From a virus, in the UHGV virus genome UHGV-0078433: a DNA stretch of 37,911 bases. One strand, written 5' to 3'. Positions 15,794-36,570 of the stretch are shown in pieces. The translations under genes and the position numbers were made by a program. Every line of letters starts with the position of its first letter. Position 1 is the stretch's first letter. A model generated the notes under the pieces. It saw nothing but the letters and a program-made list of their open reading frames with translations. It had not been told where the DNA came from and made no database searches.

Positions 15794-17992
15794 TTACTGC
15801 TGTGGTTGTTGCTGAGTTGATTTTTGCAGGATGCTGCTGATGCCCATGCGCTGCGCATGGCCCTGCGCCTGACTCTTCAGGACAAGCTCTGCATCAGCAC
15901 GGGCATTATCTCCTTGCTGTTGCTGGAACTGTCCGAGCAGTTTCAGCGCCTCACGGATATCAGATTTTTGCTGGCTATCGGCAGATGCGAGGATTTTCAC
16001 AACATTTGCCGCTGCAACCTGAGCATCAGTCTGTGCCTGGAATGCTTTAACCTGAATGGCTGCCTGTTCGTTCTGCGCTTTCTGCAATTCAGCCTGACCA
16101 GCAAGAAGCTGACCTTGCGCTGCAACCATAGCCGGATCTGGCTGACTGGCCTGTTGTTGTTTCGCCTGCTCAACCATTTGCTGTTCTTCAGGCGTTCTCG
16201 GCTTGATAACGCCAGACAGAAGCAACTGATTGCGGTTGTATTCTTTAAGGTCGCCCATCCCTTCGCCGTCCATATTGTCGAGAATCATCGACGATACAAG
16301 GTCGTGCTTCGGCGTCCCTGGCGGGATAAGTGCCAGCATGGAAAGTAACGACTTAACCGTTGCATCACGGCGAGTAGCGAACGACTGACCGACATCGACA
16401 GTCACTTCGTAGTTACCCTGCGAAAGGTCGTTAAGCGCGATAACCTGCCCTGTCTGACGGTCAACCACTTCACCAGTCATCAGCGCCACGTCATCGCTGC
16501 CGTCCTCATTAACGATACGCATCGGCGTATCGCTGCCATAGACTTCACGCGCCATAGAAAGCCACACAACGCCAGCGCGACGCATGGATTTAGCCATGTT
16601 GTCCATGTAGATATAGGACTGCGTATCCATCCGGTTAAAGATGCTATCAACGGTATCGGTGGCGACGTTGCTCGGCATGTTCTCAAGCTGCGACGCACCT
16701 GTAATTTGCTGAATAGCCGTTCCGGTGTACTGCAATAGCCCGGCAAGAGCTGGAGGCATTTGTGTCGGAGGTGTATAACTGCTGACCTGAGCCTGCGCAG
16801 TAATATCTCCGTTTTTGTTTTTCAGACTGACCATCGGCAGGAACGCCGGGCGCTTTTTGTTGCGCTCCGCCCAATGAGTGGCAAGAGGACCAGGAATCAT
16901 GTCAACATCAACTACAGGAATGCCATCACCGCCAGCCTGAGTGGCGTTATCTGCAATCATGGAAACCATCAGGTTCTCAAGACGCTGTGCATCCATCGCT
17001 TTTGCTGCGTGGCCTTCGATTCGCTCCTGATTATCAACAAATGAGCGACGCCCATATACCGGGATGAGAGGAATATGTTCGCCCGGAATACGCTTCGGTT
17101 CTTCCAGCCATTCAGCGCCAGACAGAAGACCGCAATAAACTCGGCGCTTCTTCACCGTTCGCTCGCCAATCAGTTCGAATGCACCATCGGTCAGCTCGTC
17201 GACAATATCTTTGATTTGCTCTTCATCATAGATTGCCGTTTCTCCGCTGACAGGGTTACGCCATGCTGTGAGCTTCACCTTCTCTATGCGGACTTCGTAG
17301 TAACGTCCAACATAGATGGCATCTGGCGTTGACCAGTCATACTGAGTACCAGTGTCATCACGAGAAAGGCTTGCCGCGATGGAATCAGGGTATTCAGCCT
17401 CGAACGCTTTAGGCGTCATGGAGAACATTTCCATAGCCCACATAGCATCAGAGCGGTCATATTGCTTGCTGTCCTGATCGAAGAAGACGCATGTCGCCGG
17501 GTCGTAAACAGGAAGAAGGCTGATGCGCCGCTGCTCATTACTAGGATCCATTTCATCTTCGTAATCGGCACACATGCGGAAACAACCGAATCCGCCCGTT
17601 ACGGCATCATCAAATGCGTTATCACACGCTTCGCCACCGGATGTTTCCTGATAGTCAGCGCGGAATTTGCCGTTCATCTTTTCGGCTAACGCTTCCGATG
17701 CCTTATCGTCCTTCGGCCTGAATTTAACGCTTATGCGATTCTGTCGATACTCGCCAATGATGCGATCACATTCACGGGCAATCTTATTCAGTTCAAAGCG
17801 CGGATAATGCTCAAACCTGCCTTCATCAAATGAGTAACCAGCGTTTGTGCTGCCTTCCCACTGTGCGCCGGATACCCGGACGAAACGTTGAGCCTCAATA
17901 ATCTGCTCACGCATATCCTGCGTTGCTGACCAGGCATTATCAAAGTTGCACAGCACCTTGCGATGCCAGTCAGTCATCTTTTTTTCTGCCAT
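15794..17992 (-). CDS. Portal protein, P22 gp1-like
   Basis: 732 aa between terminase and scaffold; Gln-rich C-terminal barrel-like tail. Confidence 0.9.
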   Translation of the reverse strand: MAEKKMTDWHRKVLCNFDNAWSATQDMREQIIEAQRFVRVSGAQWEGSTNAGYSFDEGRFEHYPRFELNKIARECDRIIGEYRQNRISVKFRPKDDKASEALAEKMNGKFRADYQETSGGEACDNAFDDAVTGGFGCFRMCADYEDEMDPSNEQRRISLLPVYDPATCVFFDQDSKQYDRSDAMWAMEMFSMTPKAFEAEYPDSIAASLSRDDTGTQYDWSTPDAIYVGRYYEVRIEKVKLTAWRNPVSGETAIYDEEQIKDIVDELTDGAFELIGERTVKKRRVYCGLLSGAEWLEEPKRIPGEHIPLIPVYGRRSFVDNQERIEGHAAKAMDAQRLENLMVSMIADNATQAGGDGIPVVDVDMIPGPLATHWAERNKKRPAFLPMVSLKNKNGDITAQAQVSSYTPPTQMPPALAGLLQYTGTAIQQITGASQLENMPSNVATDTVDSIFNRMDTQSYIYMDNMAKSMRRAGVVWLSMAREVYGSDTPMRIVNEDGSDDVALMTGEVVDRQTGQVIALNDLSQGNYEVTVDVGQSFATRRDATVKSLLSMLALIPPGTPKHDLVSSMILDNMDGEGMGDLKEYNRNQLLLSGVIKPRTPEEQQMVEQAKQQQASQPDPAMVAAQGQLLAGQAELQKAQNEQAAIQVKAFQAQTDAQVAAANVVKILASADSQQKSDIREALKLLGQFQQQQGDNARADAELVLKSQAQGHAQRMGISSILQKSTQQQPQQ

Positions 17993-17993
17993 A

Positions 17994-19409
17994 TCAACCT
18001 ACACCACAAGGAATTGAGTAACTGGAATAGTCGGGTTGCGCAGCCGACTCCGGGCAATGCATACACATCATCAGCGCATCAGCCAGGTTAGGAGATGGGA
18101 TACCGAGCTTCTGCTTCATTTCGACCTTAGTCATAAGCTCCAGCTTCCCGTTATTATTGAATTTGCGCTGAATCTGCGTCAGTTCTGCAAACAGCTTCTC
18201 CAGCATCTTCTCGCCTATCACTTCTTTGTCGAAACTCAGCATGTCGTCGGGGTCTGCATACTCACCGTGGACAACCGCCCGATATGTCAGATAAAGCCTG
18301 TCAGCCAGCGCGTAATAGAATTGCGCTCGCTTATTGCGGAACACATCACCAATAGTGCGAACGTTGTCACCCTGTACGACTTCATCAGCCCATGCCCCGG
18401 CCTGATAAGGCGCATCCTCATCGAATGGCGATTCGCTGCCCTTGAACATCGTGGCGGTGATTTTCTTACCGGAGAACGCTTCCGTTGTCTGTCTGCGTAG
18501 ACCTGCACCAACACCATCACCATCCCACAAGTAGTGGTCAGCGCCGTCTTCAATCGCCAGAGAAGTAGCCCAGTCAGCGCCCTCGTTGATGTCCATCAGC
18601 AGGCCTTCGGCAATGCGCTTAACTACCGAACCGTGACGCGATGCGTAACCTTTAGCATCTGGCCCTGTGTCTGATGGGTCATGCGCAGAAACAACCGCGC
18701 CTTTCGCTTTCCATCCGAGTTTCTTGTGCGCATCGGTAGCAGCTTCAAGCCATTCACGTTTGATGATTGCCATATCACTTGCGCTCACTGGCTCACCAAG
18801 CCAGATGTGACGATACAGTGTCGGGTTTCTGCGTTTACGCTCTTCCATCTCCAGCCGGAGAACTTCAGGAAAGTGCGGGTTGTCGGTGTAGTTCACCGTC
18901 AGCAGGCAAATATCATCGGGAGGATTTACGACGAACCGCTGATAGGTATCGTCGAGTATGTTCTTCGGGTTAAAGCTCACCCATATTTCAGAGAACGGCT
19001 TACGGATGGTTGGTATCAGGATATCCCATGATTCCTTCGTTACCGCTTCCGCTTCTTCCACCCAGCAGATATCAATGCCTTCGAGCGATTTAATCTTCGT
19101 CGGGTTGTTTTTTATGCCGTAGAACATGAATTCAGCATTCGTTCCGAGATGACGAATCATGGAACGCTGAATTTCAAACTCAGCCGAATACCCTTCACGC
19201 TCGATGGTATCTTCAAGCAACCGGATTACCGAATCGCTGATACTGTTTTGCAGTTCACGAGCGCAGAGAATACGCACAGGCTGCCGACGCGCCGCTTCAA
19301 CAAGCAGCCTCGCAATTGCCCATGACTTACCGCTACCTCGACCGCCTTTGGCGACTTTGTAGCGATGCGCCTCAATGAACGGTTCAAAGATAGGATTAAT
19401 CGAGGTCAT
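17994..19409 (-). CDS. Terminase large subunit
   Basis: Walker A GGRGSGKS near N-terminus; 471 aa; overlaps small-subunit stop. Confidence 0.9.
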   Translation of the reverse strand: MTSINPIFEPFIEAHRYKVAKGGRGSGKSWAIARLLVEAARRQPVRILCARELQNSISDSVIRLLEDTIEREGYSAEFEIQRSMIRHLGTNAEFMFYGIKNNPTKIKSLEGIDICWVEEAEAVTKESWDILIPTIRKPFSEIWVSFNPKNILDDTYQRFVVNPPDDICLLTVNYTDNPHFPEVLRLEMEERKRRNPTLYRHIWLGEPVSASDMAIIKREWLEAATDAHKKLGWKAKGAVVSAHDPSDTGPDAKGYASRHGSVVKRIAEGLLMDINEGADWATSLAIEDGADHYLWDGDGVGAGLRRQTTEAFSGKKITATMFKGSESPFDEDAPYQAGAWADEVVQGDNVRTIGDVFRNKRAQFYYALADRLYLTYRAVVHGEYADPDDMLSFDKEVIGEKMLEKLFAELTQIQRKFNNNGKLELMTKVEMKQKLGIPSPNLADALMMCMHCPESAAQPDYSSYSIPCGVG

Positions 19410-19834
19410 TTTCCGAATAGAGTACTCATCGGTGATGTTTCAATCTGGATTGCGCCGCCGTCCTTACCGACAAGCTCGTTAGTTACCTTGTCGCCATACT
19501 TACGGGGATTCATTCGGGCCAGCGCCCATTTGCGGGTATCAACGCGAAGTCTTGCCTTTGCCACCTCAGCAGCATCTGGAATCGCATTGTCAGCAATTTC
19601 GAATATCTCTTCGAAAATAGAATCAGCTCGTGCCTCAGTTGCCTTCGCGTACTTGTCGCGAAAATCCTCATGCTTTGCCAACCAGCGGAAAACAGTGGAC
19701 TTATCCGGCATACCAGGACGCTTACATACTTTCAGCAGACTTTCGCCAGAAGAAAGCAACGAGCAGATATCGTCAGCCACCTCCGGCATATAATCAGAGG
19801 GGCGACCAGCTTTTGGTTCAGTCGCCATATTCAT
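19406..19834 (-). CDS. Terminase small subunit (Sf6-type)
   Basis: 142 aa immediately upstream of large subunit with 4-nt overlap. Confidence 0.75.
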   Translation of the reverse strand: MNMATEPKAGRPSDYMPEVADDICSLLSSGESLLKVCKRPGMPDKSTVFRWLAKHEDFRDKYAKATEARADSIFEEIFEIADNAIPDAAEVAKARLRVDTRKWALARMNPRKYGDKVTNELVGKDGGAIQIETSPMSTLFGK

Positions 19835-20032
19835 CTCACTTAATTGTCATTTCAGGTTGAGGACTCTTTCGCGCCTTCAATCAGTGACTGCTTCAGCAAT
19901 TCGAGTGCGCCAATCGCCTCGCATAAACTGATTTCACCATCGTAATCATGGATGACGCTTTCAAGCCGCTCGTATAGCTCTTGAGTAATTGGGAATTTCT
20001 TCTCCTTACCCAAATTGATTACGCGGCTCACA

Positions 20033-20275
20033 TCATGCTCCGGCAGTGAACAGGTCTAACGCTTCCTTCGATTTACGCACCGCTTCGAATGTGCGGATCG
20101 TGATATCTGAATTAGCGCCGCCTGACTGGAAGTGAATTTTGAATAGCTCAAGCTTCAGCTCGTCAGTGCCAATGAATTGAAATGCTTCTTCTGCGGCTGC
20201 GTTCTGGTTCATGACCAGTTTGTAAATCTCTAACTGGAATTTCTGTTCTTCAGTCATGGGAATAATCTCTGTCAT
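20033..20275 (-). CDS. Hypothetical protein
   Basis: ORF track only. Confidence 0.35.
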   Translation of the reverse strand: MTEIIPMTEEQKFQLEIYKLVMNQNAAAEEAFQFIGTDELKLELFKIHFQSGGANSDITIRTFEAVRKSKEALDLFTAGA

Positions 20276-20531
20276 TGTTGGCTCCGTTTATCCGTTAAAA
20301 GGGATATCAGTTAAGTTATCCCGTGTAGGGTATAAGCCATTGTCGAGACCACTCATTGAATGGTCTCTGCAATAACCGATGTCTTTCCATCAGTCCGCCA
20401 CCACAAAGAATCTTTTTTGCCATAAGGCAGGAGGTTCATCTTTCAGTGGCTGCCAGTGTTATTTCCCCACTTACTGGCTTGGGTTGTTTCGCTGTACTGC
20501 CGTAATGCAAAAACTGGATTAACCTGCGAAA

Positions 20532-21062
20532 TCACACCATTCCGGGCAAATACATTTGCACTTCATTTGCCGCTCTCTCACGTGCAACATGAAGCAATCT
20601 TTTTCGCCCACCAACGCCCCACTTAGCCATTTGGCTTGCGCACTGGCTTATCGCTTTGGTTTCAGTATTGATGATGTGATCGATTCTATTCAGACGGGAC
20701 ATTGCGCCAACGCCGAGACGGACAACCGTTTTGAAAACTTCATAAACTTCGATTTCAAATTCCGGCTTAATCCATGCTGCATATCTGATTGCCAGAAGTT
20801 CAACACCCCACACACCTGGTTCTGCACCACCTTTGATTATTTTAAGTGGTTGAATTTGTTCCAAAGTGCTTTTTTGCACTTTGGCCTCCAGTGCTTTTAT
20901 GAAGCGTTTTATCTGCGCGCTACGCAAAAACTGGCTTGGGCGCTGTTGCTCTGTAGCCTCTCCATTTGCAACTGCTGCTGCATGGAGATCGTTTAAGTTG
21001 TAGCGTCCATCCTCATCAACACGAACGGACACACCATTGACAATAACTGTTGGGTACTTCAT
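20532..21062 (-). CDS. KilA-N domain protein
   Basis: N-terminal VIVNGVSVRVDEDGRYNLNDLH pattern typical of KilA-N. Confidence 0.7.
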   Translation of the reverse strand: MKYPTVIVNGVSVRVDEDGRYNLNDLHAAAVANGEATEQQRPSQFLRSAQIKRFIKALEAKVQKSTLEQIQPLKIIKGGAEPGVWGVELLAIRYAAWIKPEFEIEVYEVFKTVVRLGVGAMSRLNRIDHIINTETKAISQCASQMAKWGVGGRKRLLHVARERAANEVQMYLPGMV

Positions 21063-21204
21063 CAGTGATTACCTTTTAGTGATGAACCTTGTCACACAGG
21101 ATTCCGGCCCACAGAAAGGCACCGATCACCAAACCGGCATCCTCAAGGGTCATCCTGAAAGGTTCTGTGTTCAGAAGTCGCGCGTGTGAAGCGCGTTTGT
21201 TGCA

Positions 21205-21234
21205 GATATAAAAAAGCCCCGCAAATGCGAGGCT
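21205..21234 (-). terminator. Rho-independent terminator downstream of lysis cassette
   Basis: On - strand: GCCUCGC-AUUU-GCGGGGC stem-loop followed by UUUUUUAUAU. Confidence 0.5.
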
Positions 21235-21407
21235 AAATCCTGGTGTTTGTGATGACTGGCTCTTATCTCAACGCAGCCCCTTACCGCGCGCAAGATGCTC
21301 AATATCAAGCATCAGCAATGAGATGTTTAATCTGGATTCACTCCAGAAGTGATCACCACCCTGTCTACAGAGCCAGATGTGAAGGATGATGAGTAAAATT
21401 ATCGCTA

Positions 21408-21875
21408 TCATCGAAGGCATTGCGTCCCGATGTATTCCTGAAGCGTTCTCAGTGCTGTTTGGTCGCGGATAATTCCGTCCCGGATACCGAGAACGTTTCG
21501 TCCAGCAACTGGAGAGAGTTCGACGGTGGCATCATTGCCCATGCCGGAGGCACTGGAGGCTTCGGCTGAGGATGGCACAGGGCATTTTCCTTTGACGAGC
21601 ACCCTGCCACCATTATCAAGCTTGCGCCGAAGAGCATCATTTTCAGCTTTCGCATCAGCTAACTCCTTCGTGTATTTAGCATCAAGTGCATCAGCAGTAC
21701 GCTGGCGCTGCTGCATGTCAGTAATGGTGGCAGTCGCCTGCTTCAGCTCACTGACTTTTTTATCGCGCTGCTCTTTGTAGGTCATGGCGTTATCACGGTA
21801 ATGATTAACAGCCCATGACAGGCAGACGATGATGCAGATAATCAGAGCGGAGATAATCGCGGTGACTCTGCTCAT
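21408..21875 (-). CDS. Rz: i-spanin Rz
   Basis: N-terminal TM segment, coiled-coil; follows endolysin with overlap. Confidence 0.85.
21449..21655 (-). CDS. Rz1: o-spanin Rz1 (lipoprotein, embedded in Rz)
   Basis: Lipobox VAGC, proline-rich; fully embedded in Rz in +1 frame. Confidence 0.8.
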
Positions 21876-22348
21876 ACCTCAATCTCTCTGACCGTTCCGC
21901 CAGCCTCTTTGAATTTTGCAATCAGACTATCAGCCTTATGCTCGAACTGACCATAACCAGCGCCCGGCAATGAAGCCCAGATATTGCTGCAACGGTCGAT
22001 AGCCTGACGAATATCACCGCGATCAATCATCGGTAAAGCGCCACGCTCTTTAATCTGTTGCAGTGCCACAGCGTCCTGGCTTTTCGGAGAGAAGTCTTTC
22101 AGGCCAAGCTGCTTACGGTAGGCATCCCACCAACGGGAAAGAAGCTGGTAACGTCCGGCTGCTGTTGATTTGAGTTTGGGGTTTAGCGTGACAAGTTTGC
22201 GAGGGTGATCGGAGTAATCAGTGAATAGCTCTCCGCCAACAATGACGTCATAACCATGATTTCTGGTTTTCTGCCGTCCGTTATCAGTTCCCTCTGACCA
22301 CGCCAGCATATCGAGGAACGCCTTACGTTGATTATTGATTTCCACCAT
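21872..22348 (-). CDS. R: Endolysin, lambda R-type lytic transglycosylase
   Basis: [26 protein letters not shown]... essentially as I recall lambda R. Confidence 0.95.
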
Positions 22349-22655
22349 CTTCTACTCCGGCTTTTTTAGCAGCGAGGCGTTTGATAAGCGAACCAATCGA
22401 GTCAGTACCGATGTAGCCGATGAACACGCTCGTTATATAAGCGAGATTGCTACTTAGTCCGGCGAAGTCGAGAAGGTCACGAATGAACCAGGCGATAATG
22501 GCGCACATCGTTGCGTCGATTACTGTTTTTGTAAACGCACCGCCATTATATCTGCCGCGAAGGTACGCCATTGCAAACGCAAGGATTGCCCCGATGCCTT
22601 GTTCCTTTGCCGCGAGAATGGCGGCTAACAGGTCATGTTTTTCTGGCATCTTCAT
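22332..22655 (-). CDS. S: Holin, lambda S (dual-start motif MKMPEK)
   Basis: Sequence essentially as I recall lambda S. Confidence 0.95.
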
Positions 22656-23182: not shown

Positions 23183-23671
23183 CTACGCTACATGTTTAAT
23201 TTTCTCTACACGTTTCCGGTTTTTAAACGCACTATCCAGAACCGGGTAAATCATAAACAACGAGGCATTGAGGATTTCGTCAACTTCCCGACGACAGGTT
23301 GCGAGCGATGGTTTTTGAATGCGCCCGCCGCCCCGGCATAACATCTTGCGAGGTCTTGCGACGCGATGATAGTAAGATGCAATGGCGTGCTTGGAAGAAC
23401 CGTGGGCGTAGTAGCTGAGGAGGATGCCAAAGGCTTTCTTGTCAATGTACATGACGGAATCGACGACCTGAGAAATCAACATTCCATCATCATCATTGCA
23501 CATCGGCCTTGTCATAACTCTTCCCGGCTCTACGCTCTCCATGAACTTCGCTATTACGCTGCTCATGCGCTTTTCAAGACGACCTGAATAAACCCATGCT
23601 CCCCACAGTTCAAGCCAGCCATTCAGCCAATCGTGCTGCTCTTTGGTGAGGTTTAGTTCTCTTATGCTCAT
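23183..23671 (-). CDS. Late-gene antiterminator Q-like protein
   Basis: 162-aa ORF between NinH and the ~530-bp leader before S; no zinc-finger of lambda Q visible, so a different Q family. Confidence 0.65.
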   Translation of the reverse strand: MSIRELNLTKEQHDWLNGWLELWGAWVYSGRLEKRMSSVIAKFMESVEPGRVMTRPMCNDDDGMLISQVVDSVMYIDKKAFGILLSYYAHGSSKHAIASYYHRVARPRKMLCRGGGRIQKPSLATCRREVDEILNASLFMIYPVLDSAFKNRKRVEKIKHVA

Positions 23672-31305: not shown

Positions 31306-31415
31306 CCAGAACTTGAGTGGTTTTGGGGATGGCGCGAATTGCAGCTGCAAGACAGCGATCGAGAAGATAAGCACCTCGACGCGTCATGCGCCAAAGCCAC
31401 TTAAAGGAGACCATC

Positions 31416-31721
31416 ATGGTAACCATTGTCTGGAAAGAATCCAAAGGTACGGCAAAAAGCCGCTACAAAGCTCGCAGAGCAGAACTTATTGCCGAGCGAC
31501 GCAGTAATGAAGCACTGGCGCGAAAAATTGCGCTAAAGCTCTCTGGTTGCGTCAGAGCAGACAAAGCAGCATCACTAGGAAGCCTTTGCTGCAAGAAGAA
31601 AGAAGAAGTCGTTCGAAAAAATAGAAGTATTTATTACAAAGATTCAAACCCGTTAGGAAACAAAATACATGCAGTCCAAAAAATAAAATTGTACAGTAAA
31701 CTACCGTACGGTGCTTATTGA
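31416..31721 (+). CDS. N-type antiterminator (P22 gene 24-like) with arginine-rich motif
   Basis: ARM GTAKSRYKARRAELIAERR resembles the P22 N peptide GNAKTRRHERRRKLAIER (recall); start at MVTIVW with GGAG RBS rather than track start 31386. Confidence 0.7.
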   Translation: MVTIVWKESKGTAKSRYKARRAELIAERRSNEALARKIALKLSGCVRADKAASLGSLCCKKKEEVVRKNRSIYYKDSNPLGNKIHAVQKIKLYSKLPYGAY

Positions 31722-32062
31722 GTATGCTTATGGTGAAAAAGACTATTTATGTTAATCCTGACCGCGGACAAAACAGAAAAGTATCTGATAGAGGTCTTAC
31801 ATCTCGAGACAGGAGGAGAATAGCGAGATGGGAAAAAAGGATAGCATATGCATTAAAAAACGGTGTAACACCTGGATTTAATGCTATAGATGACGGTCCG
31901 GAATATAAGATTAATGAAGAACCAATGGACAAAGTTGACAAAGCATTAGCAACACCATTTCCTCGCGATGTAGAAAAAATTGAAGATGAAAAATATGAGG
32001 ATGTAATGCACAGAGTTGTTAATCACGCTCACCAACGAAATCCAAATAAAAAATGGTCATAG
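31718..32062 (+). CDS. Hypothetical AT-rich moron protein downstream of N
   Basis: ORF track; followed by its own terminator. Confidence 0.5.
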   Translation: MSMLMVKKTIYVNPDRGQNRKVSDRGLTSRDRRRIARWEKRIAYALKNGVTPGFNAIDDGPEYKINEEPMDKVDKALATPFPRDVEKIEDEKYEDVMHRVVNHAHQRNPNKKWS

Positions 32063-32394: not shown

Positions 32395-32637
32395 ATGAGA
32401 GTAAAAACTATGGGCGCAAGCCCATTAAGCGGTCGTATTTTTCAAGGAACATTAAACACTGAAAAAGGAATGTGGGTAGGAAAGAAAGAAGATGTCACCG
32501 AACAGGCAGTTAAGGCAGTAGCCGAACACATGATGATAAAAGACCAGAAATATGCATACGAAACGAAGGATGGCAAATGGCTGATAATAAGCCATCAACT
32601 GGTTGATAAATTACCAGAAGAGTTTATTGCTGGTTAA
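32395..32637 (+). CDS. Hypothetical protein
   Basis: ORF track; GAGGA RBS 7 nt upstream. Confidence 0.55.
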   Translation: MRVKTMGASPLSGRIFQGTLNTEKGMWVGKKEDVTEQAVKAVAEHMMIKDQKYAYETKDGKWLIISHQLVDKLPEEFIAG

Positions 32638-32765
32638 ATTCACTTTGGAACAAACAACAGAATAAACACTGCACTGTGTATTCATTCCAACGAGTGAATA
32701 CACGGAGCAATGTCGCTCGTAACTAAACAGGAGCCGACTTGTTCTGATTATTGGAAATCTTCTTT

Positions 32766-32790
32766 GCCCTCCAGTGTGGGGGCTTTTTTA
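32766..32790 (+). terminator. Rho-independent terminator upstream of c3
   Basis: GCCCTC-CAGTGU-GGGGGC followed by TTTTTTATAT. Confidence 0.5.
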
Positions 32791-32855
32791 TATGCATACC
32801 AATAACGCTTCACTCGAGGCGTTTTCGTTATGCAATCAAACAGAAGGAGCATCCT

Positions 32856-33026
32856 ATGCAACAGTTCGCTATTGCAGGGGCGGCATCGGTTCGCCCTTTC
32901 AACCCGATTTTATCGGTACAGCATTCACGAAAAAATATTTTAACCGGAGCAGACTTTAAACAACCAAGAATGAAAAGTTTGCTCGAAAAGCTTTGGGATA
33001 TTTTGAAACAACAAGGCCGTCCATGA
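32856..33026 (+). CDS. c3: CIII-type protease inhibitor (c3)
   Basis: MQQFAIAG...KLWDILKQQGRP resembles lambda CIII MQYAIAG...LIDILNQPGVP; internal start chosen because the track's N-terminal extension contains a terminator. Confidence 0.7.
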   Translation: MQQFAIAGAASVRPFNPILSVQHSRKNILTGADFKQPRMKSLLEKLWDILKQQGRP

Positions 33027-36299: not shown

Positions 36300-36319
36300 A
36301 CCCAATATTACATAACAAT

Positions 36320-36348
36320 CCTCGCACTCGCGGGGATTTATTTTATCT
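36320..36348 (+). terminator. Rho-independent terminator after ea8.5
   Basis: CCUCGC-ACUC-GCGGGG (one G-U pair) followed by AUUUAUUUUAU. Confidence 0.5.
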
Positions 36349-36387
36349 GAACTCGCTACGGCGGGTTTTGTTTTATGGAGATGATAA

Positions 36388-36555
36388 ATGCACTTCCGAG
36401 TCACAGGAGAATGGAATGGAGAGCCATTCAACAGAGTTATCGAAGCGGAGAACATCAACGACTGCTACGACCACTGGATGATATGGGCGCAGATAGCACA
36501 TGCAGACGTAACCAATATTCGAATTGAAGAACTGAAAGAACACCAAACCGCCTGA
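36388..36555 (+). CDS. 55-aa ORF upstream of xis (lambda orf55 position)
   Basis: Hand-translated MHFRVTGEWNGEPFNRVIEAEN...; GGAG RBS 7 nt upstream; below track cutoff. Confidence 0.5.
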   Translation: MHFRVTGEWNGEPFNRVIEAENINDCYDHWMIWAQIAHADVTNIRIEELKEHQTA

Positions 36556-36570
36556 TGGCGGTTTTTTCTT
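36546..36570 (+). terminator. Rho-independent terminator
   Basis: AACCGCC-TGAT-GGCGGTT followed by TTTTCTT. Confidence 0.5.

Follow-up and report, generated by a model that had tools for sequence, protein, structure and literature searches.

The window analysed here, the whole 37,911-nucleotide (nt) stretch of UHGV virus genome UHGV-0078433, comes from an E. coli phage or prophage that is mosaic and P22-like (Lederbergvirus-type), and it contains two distant intrinsic terminators that end in the same 15 nt, GGGGCTTTTTTATAT. The original prediction was that such shared terminator tails may be conserved module-boundary terminators of this phage group. The identity itself stands: the 37,911-bp window has exactly two copies of the 15-mer, one on the minus strand at 21206-21220 (site 1) and one on the plus strand at 32779-32793 (site 2), each being the 3' end of a hairpin that is followed by a T-tract. 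The nearest named relatives of the window are Kapi1, CUS-3, phiv205-1 and E212, each of which matches 38-60 % of its right-hand 24 kb, with identities of 95-97 %.

Site 1 is an intrinsic terminator at 21206..21234 (minus strand), with the stem-loop AGCCTCGC-ATTT-GCGGGGCT at 21234-21215, a run of six T residues (T6) at 21215-21210 and ATAT at 21209-21206. In the RNA, AGCCUCGC-AUUU-GCGGGGCU forms 8 pairs (6 G-C) around a loop of 4, and U6 follows; the predicted folding free energy (dG) is -13.7 kcal/mol for the hairpin and -15.0 for its 56-nt context, which is strong when compared with shuffles (z = -3.9). The terminator lies 34 nt past the stop of the open reading frame (ORF) at 21268-21420, on the strand of the lysis genes. 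Read along the minus strand, the order is a Q-like late antiterminator gene (23183..23671; phrog_943, E = 4e-90), upstream of the lysis genes and site 1; the holin (22332-22655) and lysozyme (21872-22348) genes, assigned from the ORF list and annotated relatives; the Rz (i-spanin) gene (21408..21875; PF03245, E = 2e-28, and the same two sources) with Rz1 (21449-21655) embedded within it; a 50-codon ORF (21268..21420; phrog_11822, E = 4e-38) that resembles Sf6 gp65 and epsilon34 gp67, the product of epsilon34 gene 67; terminator 1; a leader of 134 nt; an exchangeable KilA-N domain gene (20532..21062; PF04383, E = 7e-18); and the small terminase gene.

Site 2 is an intrinsic terminator at 32766..32793 (plus strand), made up of the stem-loop GCCCTC-CAGTGT-GGGGGC (32766-32783), T6 (32784-32789) and ATAT (32790-32793). 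Its RNA, GCCCUC-CAGUGU-GGGGGC followed by U6, has 6 pairs (5 G-C) and a loop of 6; the hairpin, at dG -10.2, is weaker than that of site 1, and in context it is indistinguishable from shuffles (z = -0.26). The site lies between the ORF at 32395-32637 and a cIII-like gene, 66 nt upstream of the latter. A second hairpin stands in tandem after it, 12 nt 3' of the 15-mer (32804..32829, plus strand; stem-loop AACGCTTC-ACTC-GAGGCGTT at 32804-32823, then TTCGTT). The plus-strand order is an N-like antiterminator gene (31386..31721; phrog_271, E = 1e-31, with a Pfam N_peptide match below threshold), which shares the operon of site 2 and precedes that site; a Nun-like ORF; a DUF7446 ORF (32395-32637); terminator 2; the second hairpin; the cIII-like gene (32856..33026; phrog_550 CIII, E = 1e-22); and recombination genes. 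The Q-dependent late operon thus contains terminator 1, and the N-dependent leftward (PL-type) operon contains terminator 2. The original prediction had located both to within a few bases, and its description of one as lying after Rz and the other upstream of c3 needs correcting in only two details, the 50-codon ORF, which is the final ORF between Rz and terminator 1, and the second hairpin between terminator 2 and cIII.

Both sites have the anatomy of an intrinsic terminator, a G/C-rich hairpin directly followed by a U-run on the transcribed strand, and both are intergenic and point in the direction in which their operon is transcribed. Across relatives, hairpin and U-tract are kept despite stem change at both sites; a lambda-type hairpin found at the site-2 position has a poor T-tract. 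Neither site looks bidirectional, since there is no A-tract upstream (CCAGGATTT and AATCTTCTTT are found instead) and the opposite strands read hairpin then TAAATCC at site 1 and hairpin then AAAGAAG at site 2, with no T-tract. A U·G pair is present in both stems, and on the opposite strands C·A mismatches replace these G·U pairs. Because of these stem pairs and the lack of an upstream A-tract, each site is probably a terminator for one strand only. Judged by sequence, both are ordinary, already known Rho-independent terminators at which termination is predicted; the terminator annotations carried by their homologues in epsilon34, phi80 and mEpX1 are themselves predictions.

Each site also falls at a mosaic joint. 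When a 501-nt BLAST query around site 1 was used, matches broke exactly at the terminator, with one set reaching up to it from the Rz side (epsilon34, Sf101, HK620, CUS-3 and others) and another running from it on the KilA-N side (ST104, SE1, ST64B and others). The site-1 hairpin is kept in more than 120 viral contigs. Contigs anchored on the Rz side keep it and have six different sequences after the T-tract; contigs anchored on the leader have several different upstream modules, each with its own related hairpin, and at least nine different stems, each with a T-run, occupy the site-1 position ahead of one leader. At site 2, the conserved sequence GCATACCAATAACGCTTCAC on the 3' side follows at least five upstream contexts and two unrelated hairpin types. 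Taken separately, then, each site appears to be a terminator at a mosaic joint that is conserved in the phage group, and "module-boundary terminators" is a fair description of each of them. This part of the original prediction holds; its other part, in which the shared tail is the conserved feature, does not, for the reasons that follow.

With respect to random sequence, the 15-base match is far beyond chance: the window has no further copy of GGGGCTTTTTTATAT with 1 mismatch, and 100 dinucleotide-preserving shuffles of the window gave 0 matches. A terminator-aware null model, built from the last 5 stem bases and the 10 tail bases of 170 predicted terminators from diverse viral loci or 237 from lambdoid loci, gives a probability of ~3e-5 to 7.5e-5 for full agreement of a given pair of terminators over the 15 positions. 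In these two sets, stems ending GGGGC make up 9.4 % and 16.9 % of the terminators, T6 with A next to it is found in 17.6 % and 20.3 %, and the whole tail TTTTTTATAT in 1.2 % and 3.4 %. A scan of viral contigs found the 15-mer in at least 120 stretches with at least 99 distinct 20-nt upstream contexts; among the matches listed there are about a dozen site-1 homologues and a single site-2 homologue, and the remainder are unrelated and mostly fold as hairpins closing on GGGGC. The 15-mer is a generic terminator ending. Its presence twice in one window is uncommon, but a match of this kind is to be expected when many windows are scanned by eye.

What the relatives have at the equivalent positions was counted only in loci that had not been selected on the 15-mer. 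For 122 site-1 loci anchored on the Rz side, the endings are GGGGC-T5-ATTG (52), GGGGC-T6-ACAT (30), GGGGC-T6-ATAT, which is the 15-mer (11), GGGGC-T5-ATAT (9) and others (20, including stems ending GGGG with T4-T7 and ATTC); when the leader side was used as the anchor, the 15-mer was found in 15 of 48 loci. None of 119 site-2 homologues has it. The same hairpin type as in the window is present in 54 of these 119, with GAGGGCCTTTTTATAT (GAGGGCC-T5-ATAT) in 33, GAGGGCTTTTTTATAT (GAGGGC-T6-ATAT) in 18, GAGGGATTTTTT in 1 and the G allele with CC in 2, and the remaining 65 have the lambda-type hairpin GCCGCCTGAGYGCGGC, then TTTACC or GTTACC. Named phages vary in the same way: site 1 ends in ...TTTTTTACAT in epsilon34 and E212, in ...TTTTTTATGT in phi80 and in ...TTTTTTGTAT in ST104 (CCGGGCTTTTTTGTAT), and site 2 is GGGGGCCTTTTTATAT in E212 and GAGGGCCTTTTTATAT in mEpX1. 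Identical tails at both sites were not found in any of six other genomes that have both terminators (five from IMG/VR, and E212). In the window, site 2 combines two minor alleles, an A-to-G change that turns an A-U stem pair into G·U and a C-to-T change that lengthens the U-tract from 5 to 6; together they shift the predicted hairpin energy by only ~0.5 kcal/mol, and the same double allele is present in one otherwise different phage contig (L117). Thus stems seem to be conserved in position while tails drift, and a tail shared by equivalent terminators, on which the original prediction depended, is for the most part not found in relatives.

Apart from these counts, the ST104/SE1 allele of site 1 (locus L004, ~860-890) has C for G in the 3' arm (GCCGGGC), a change that takes the hairpin from about -13.7 to -5.4 kcal/mol in the folding model. 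Sister contigs retain the G, and this allele may be a weakened terminator. In lambda-type phages, the hairpin GCCGCCTGAGYGCGGC, unrelated to that of the window and with its poor T-tract (TTTACC or GTTACC), is found at the site-2 position in lambda itself (33544-33526; locus L001, 1129-1147) and in 65 IMG/VR loci, and in lambda it overlaps the end of ea10. Since it is common to at least five different upstream contexts, the lambda-type hairpin itself appears to be joint sequence.

We conclude that sites 1 and 2 are very probably two independent, ordinary terminators, and that their identical 15 bases are a coincidence of variable alleles rather than a product of common descent or a conserved signature. 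The 15-mer would then be a generic terminator part, composed of a G/C-rich 3' stem end, a U-tract and the A/T-rich DNA after it. Consistent with this, the Q-like, Rz, KilA-N, N-like and cIII-like genes flank the two sites in the order expected. Several observations pull the other way. Even under the terminator-aware null, only 0.001-0.014 identical pairs are expected per genome with 9-20 terminators, so that a 15-nt identity is still uncommon; both differences between site 2 of the window and the majority allele go toward the site-1 sequence; and in the 32 nt after the 15-mer, aligned in fixed register, 17 of 32 positions are shared, including the exact 8-mer CGCTTCAC, a level of agreement reached by 0.2 % of background terminator pairs and 0.07 % of shuffles (p ~2e-3 and 7e-4). 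The 8-mer begins exactly 12 nt after the 15-mer at both sites, in each case inside a second hairpin (21179-21195; 32804-32823). Such a pattern could have arisen if the sites had diverged from a single ancestral cassette (terminator, 12-nt spacer, second hairpin) through duplication or exchange between the late and leftward operons. Indeed, an ungapped alignment of the two sites extends over ~64 nt with 62 % identity, CGCTTCAC has the same spacing in both, and the fixed-register similarity has a p of ~1e-3. However, in reciprocal nhmmer searches with the terminator excluded, the profile of either downstream family misses the other site even at E <= 100; CGCTTCAC is stem end and loop at site 1 and 5' stem arm at site 2; and the site-1 loop varies by lineage (TTCACAC, ATCTCAC, CTCGCAC, ATCGCAG) under the constraint of pairing with a distal sequence, such that the 8-mer identity is lineage-specific. 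Moreover, the mosaic joint at site 2 falls between ATAT and GCATACC, which places the 15-mer and the 8-mer of that site in different exchangeable segments. Homology beyond the 15-mer by way of CGCTTCAC was considered in its own right and is unsupported, a gapped scan having returned two separate families and chance matches, with negative profiles. We attribute the additional same-register similarity to chance, which leaves common descent a very small residual likelihood, and an ancestral cassette is correspondingly very unlikely.

The direction of the two allele changes at site 2 would also be explained by short-patch ectopic gene conversion or recombination, in this genome or a recent ancestor, that copied the site-1 tail onto site 2, since the window differs from the majority at two positions within 6 nt (GAGGGCC to GGGGGCT), both toward site 1. 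We consider this extremely improbable: each change also occurs singly (C to T in 18 of 54 loci; A to G in 2 of 54 and in phage E212), the double allele recurs in the otherwise different contig L117, both changes are simple transitions, and just 5' of GGGGC site 1 has TGC where site 2 has GTG, which would limit the converted tract to <=15 nt. Selection on the tail itself, with convergence on GGGGC-U6-AUAU for the efficiency of termination or read-through or for recognition by a phage or host factor, would account for the recurrence of the 15-mer at many unrelated terminators and for the fair frequency of TTTTTTATAT, at 1.2-3.4 % of background terminators. Yet frequent recurrence is already predicted by generic composition, relatives use other tails and tract lengths at both sites (T5-T7; ACAT, ATTG, ATTC, GTAT, ATGT), and within-genome concordance of the two tails is absent from the six other genomes; selection of this kind is improbable.

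If the two sites are independent terminators within antiterminated operons, their function would follow from what is known of lambda and P22. Polymerase that has not been modified by Q or N would stop or be attenuated at site 1 or site 2, and N- or Q-modified polymerase would read through; because of this difference, downstream expression would depend on the antiterminator. Expression of cIII and the recombination genes would hence be N-dependent, and that of the KilA-N gene and the late genes downstream would be Q-dependent.

The second hairpin after site 2 is near-identical to lambda 33512-33490, directly upstream of cIII; over GCATACCAATAACGCTTCACTCGAGGCGTTTT(T)CGTTATG the window and lambda are identical save for one T, indicating that the two hairpins are homologous. 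We take it to be tL2b of the lambda tL2 cluster, a name for which lambda records and the literature searched offered no confirmation: no terminator is annotated at that position in either of two lambda records, and no usable mention of lambda tL2b was found in the literature searched. The cIII-like gene that follows encodes 56 aa, has the Shine-Dalgarno sequence AAGGAG, and its product has a weak BLASTP match to lambda CIII. In RefSeq relatives (mEpX1, HK140 and others), "CIII anti-termination" is annotated as a 91-codon, TTG-start ORF that runs through the terminator and the second hairpin (window 32751-33026, plus strand; locus L002, 708-983). The 56-codon ORF from the ATG at 32856 is likelier to be the gene, because AAGGAG stands upstream of it and its start aligns with that of lambda cIII. 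The product name is also a misnomer, since CIII is not known to act as an antiterminator. Further upstream in the same operon, the ORF for a Nun-like transcription termination factor (phrog_5632, E = 9e-71) directly follows and overlaps the N-like ORF (window 31386-32062 for the two together, plus strand); the occurrence of N-like and Nun-like ORFs in one operon is unusual enough to record.

The sequence that abuts site 1 deserves separate attention. A conserved structured leader of ~130 nt (21063..21196, minus strand) starts 12 nt after the 15-mer and lies between terminator 1 and the exchangeable gene. It is present in 361 phage records, including Shiga toxin (Stx) phages, phi80 and P22-like phages, and it is kept while the sequences on either side of it vary. 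Ahead of it stand at least nine terminator hairpins, unrelated or diverged, and the genes that start ~117 nt after its first hairpin are of at least five kinds, among them KilA-N, GIY-YIG, two Rha/KilA-like types and one for a 251-aa protein. Elsewhere the following gene is ant in VT2-Sakai and 933W, rha in phi80 and an HNH endonuclease gene in ECP1. In the window the first hairpin is CGCGC-TTCACAC-GCGCG (21195-21179); its loop UCACAC (21189-21184) is predicted to pair with GUGUGA (21097-21092), and CCUUUCAGGA (21162-21153), which includes a CCUUU block (21162-21158), with UCCUG (21101-21097) and with the Shine-Dalgarno sequence AAAGG (~21075-21071), all on the minus strand.

RNAalifold, applied to diverse representatives, pairs CCUUU with the Shine-Dalgarno AAAGG and CAGGA with UCCUG, and places compensatory changes in the inner helices; ~90-97 % of the alignment cells are paired, compared with 31-56 % when the partners are slid, and five pairs show two-sided changes, in a structure derived from the same alignments and from few lineages. 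The signal is strongest for a predicted long-range helix that joins the first-hairpin loop, UCNCAC, to GUGN'GA ~90 nt downstream. In 13 diverse sequences this helix is 100 % paired, and its central pair is A·U, U·A, G·C or G·U. As a prediction test, leaders were chosen only for a UCGCA loop, and the distal site was GUGCGA in 68 of 69 copies. Overall, the central pair is standard in 191 of 192 copies (57 of 58 distinct leaders), whereas 57 % would be expected under independence. There are three Watson-Crick states of this pair, and they cut across similar leaders: the window (A·U) and VT2-Sakai (U·A) differ in state at 87 % identity, and ECP1 and epsilon34 are both G·C on different leader backbones. 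At least three independent switches are thereby implied. An inverted DNA repeat bound by a protein would also be expected to covary at this single pair. When a fourth state, with a UCCCA loop, was looked for, there were chance matches only and no true leaders. Rfam gave no match for the whole window at gathering thresholds and only sub-threshold noise at E <= 1 around both sites; a consensus scan of the leader found no convincing promoter for the KilA-N gene; and in the literature searched there was no description of the leader and nothing relevant on rha, phi80 and IHF. To our knowledge, no trans-acting short RNA is known for it. A 19-codon ORF inside the leader (MTLEDAGLVIGAFLWAGIL) was discarded as a candidate gene, its ATG being absent from epsilon34- and phi80-type leaders.

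We tentatively suggest, as a possibility that falls somewhat short of even, that hundreds of lambdoid phages carry a unit composed of any terminator hairpin, this ~130-nt leader acting as a cis-regulatory RNA, and an exchangeable gene (KilA-N, Rha, Ant, GIY-YIG or HNH), in which the loop would pair with the distal GUGN'GA and CCUUU would sequester the Shine-Dalgarno sequence of the gene that follows. In Stx phages (VT2-Sakai, locus L496, 110-384; also loci L498 and L499), a terminator-like hairpin (GGCACCGTAATGATGCC, then TTTGTCATTT), the leader and ant are located between the endolysin gene R and the remaining lysis region, and in VT2phi_272 a transposase gene takes the place of ant after the leader.

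Other features of the window were seen in passing. A third terminator at 36317-36338 (plus strand; AATCCTCGCACTCGCGGGGATT, then TATTTTAT) has the stem CCTCGCA-CTC-GCGGGG, which is identical to site 1 at 22 of 28 positions and is even more like it than the stem of site 2, but it has a different tail. The hairpin at 36349-36368 directly after it makes another tandem pair, and there is a bidirectional-looking terminator at 36545-36564. Window 17068-21891 is 100 % identical to the IMG/VR contig IMGVR_UViG_3300045988_033916 (locus L271); the same or a near-identical phage is therefore represented in a public, metagenome-derived viral set.

A 15-base match between terminators can arise from their generic make-up, and matches of this sort are best judged against a terminator-aware background and against the homologous sites of relatives. 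Doing so here has, as by-products, pictured both sites as boundary terminators inside antiterminated operons, provided allele frequencies for stems that are kept in position and tails that drift, and brought to light a widespread, apparently undescribed leader through which lambdoid and Stx phages may regulate how antirepressor/KilA-N/Rha-type genes are translated. The tails are an already known, ordinary feature; the adjoining leader is the item worth a separate look.

Both sites have annotated counterparts in known phages. The terminators of epsilon34 were defined by position and by relatedness to P22 sites (PMC2629481). Its site-1 homologue (NC_011976, 41071-41094) is annotated as a "Rho-independent terminator", and that of phi80 (JX871397, 43609-43631) as a "putative rightward transcription terminator" between Rz1 and rha. 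In both phages, as in the window, the terminator comes after Rz/Rz1, with a small ORF in between in epsilon34, and an exchangeable gene lies beyond it, which is GIY-YIG in epsilon34 and rha in phi80. Their hairpins are homologous to that of the window (GCCTCGC...GCGGGGC), and they share its leader; unlike in the window, the tail is one base off, and the loop sequence and downstream gene differ. The site-2 homologue of mEpX1 (NC_019709, 27132-27155, "rho-independent terminator") has the same position upstream of cIII in surroundings that are 97.8 % identical, but it has an A-U stem pair where the window has G·U, and C then T5 where the window has T6. Luk and Szybalski reportedly described, in 1983, a cluster of lambda terminators, tL2, between ral and bet, with tL2b just upstream of cIII. 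This arrangement resembles that of the window in having tandem terminators inside the N-antiterminated PL operon; lambda differs in that an unrelated hairpin, GCCGCCTGAGTGCGG, with the poor T-tract TTTTACC, overlaps the end of ea10 at the site-2 position.

For the leader alone, the nearest analogue known to us is the IsrK/orf45/anrP locus of Gifsy-1, in which an mRNA is produced by terminator read-through and structure in its leader keeps an antirepressor-type gene translationally inactive (PMC4825925). That locus lies between antQ and the lysis genes and has no sequence or Rfam match to the window leader. IsrK was rejected as the identity of our leader, given the different locus and the fact that "orf45" is merely a 45-codon ORF (PMC4825925). 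As for terminators inside operons, a study of phage L noted that P22-like late operons often contain them, described their roles as unknown, and proposed that they might provide partial attenuation or stop transcription that lacks gp23/gp24 antitermination (PMC8022706). Phage L resembles the window in having predicted intrinsic terminators within an operon that has a single Q-dependent promoter, but its example is at the end of the procapsid module rather than after the lysis genes (PMC8022706). Lastly, the arrangement at site 1 recalls morons, which are independently transcribed insertions in phage operons (PMC3594210; PMC2629481): there, too, conserved late-operon modules flank an exchangeable gene, and a terminator marks the boundary. 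The order of parts differs, however, the classic moron being promoter-gene-terminator and the window presenting terminator-structured leader-gene.

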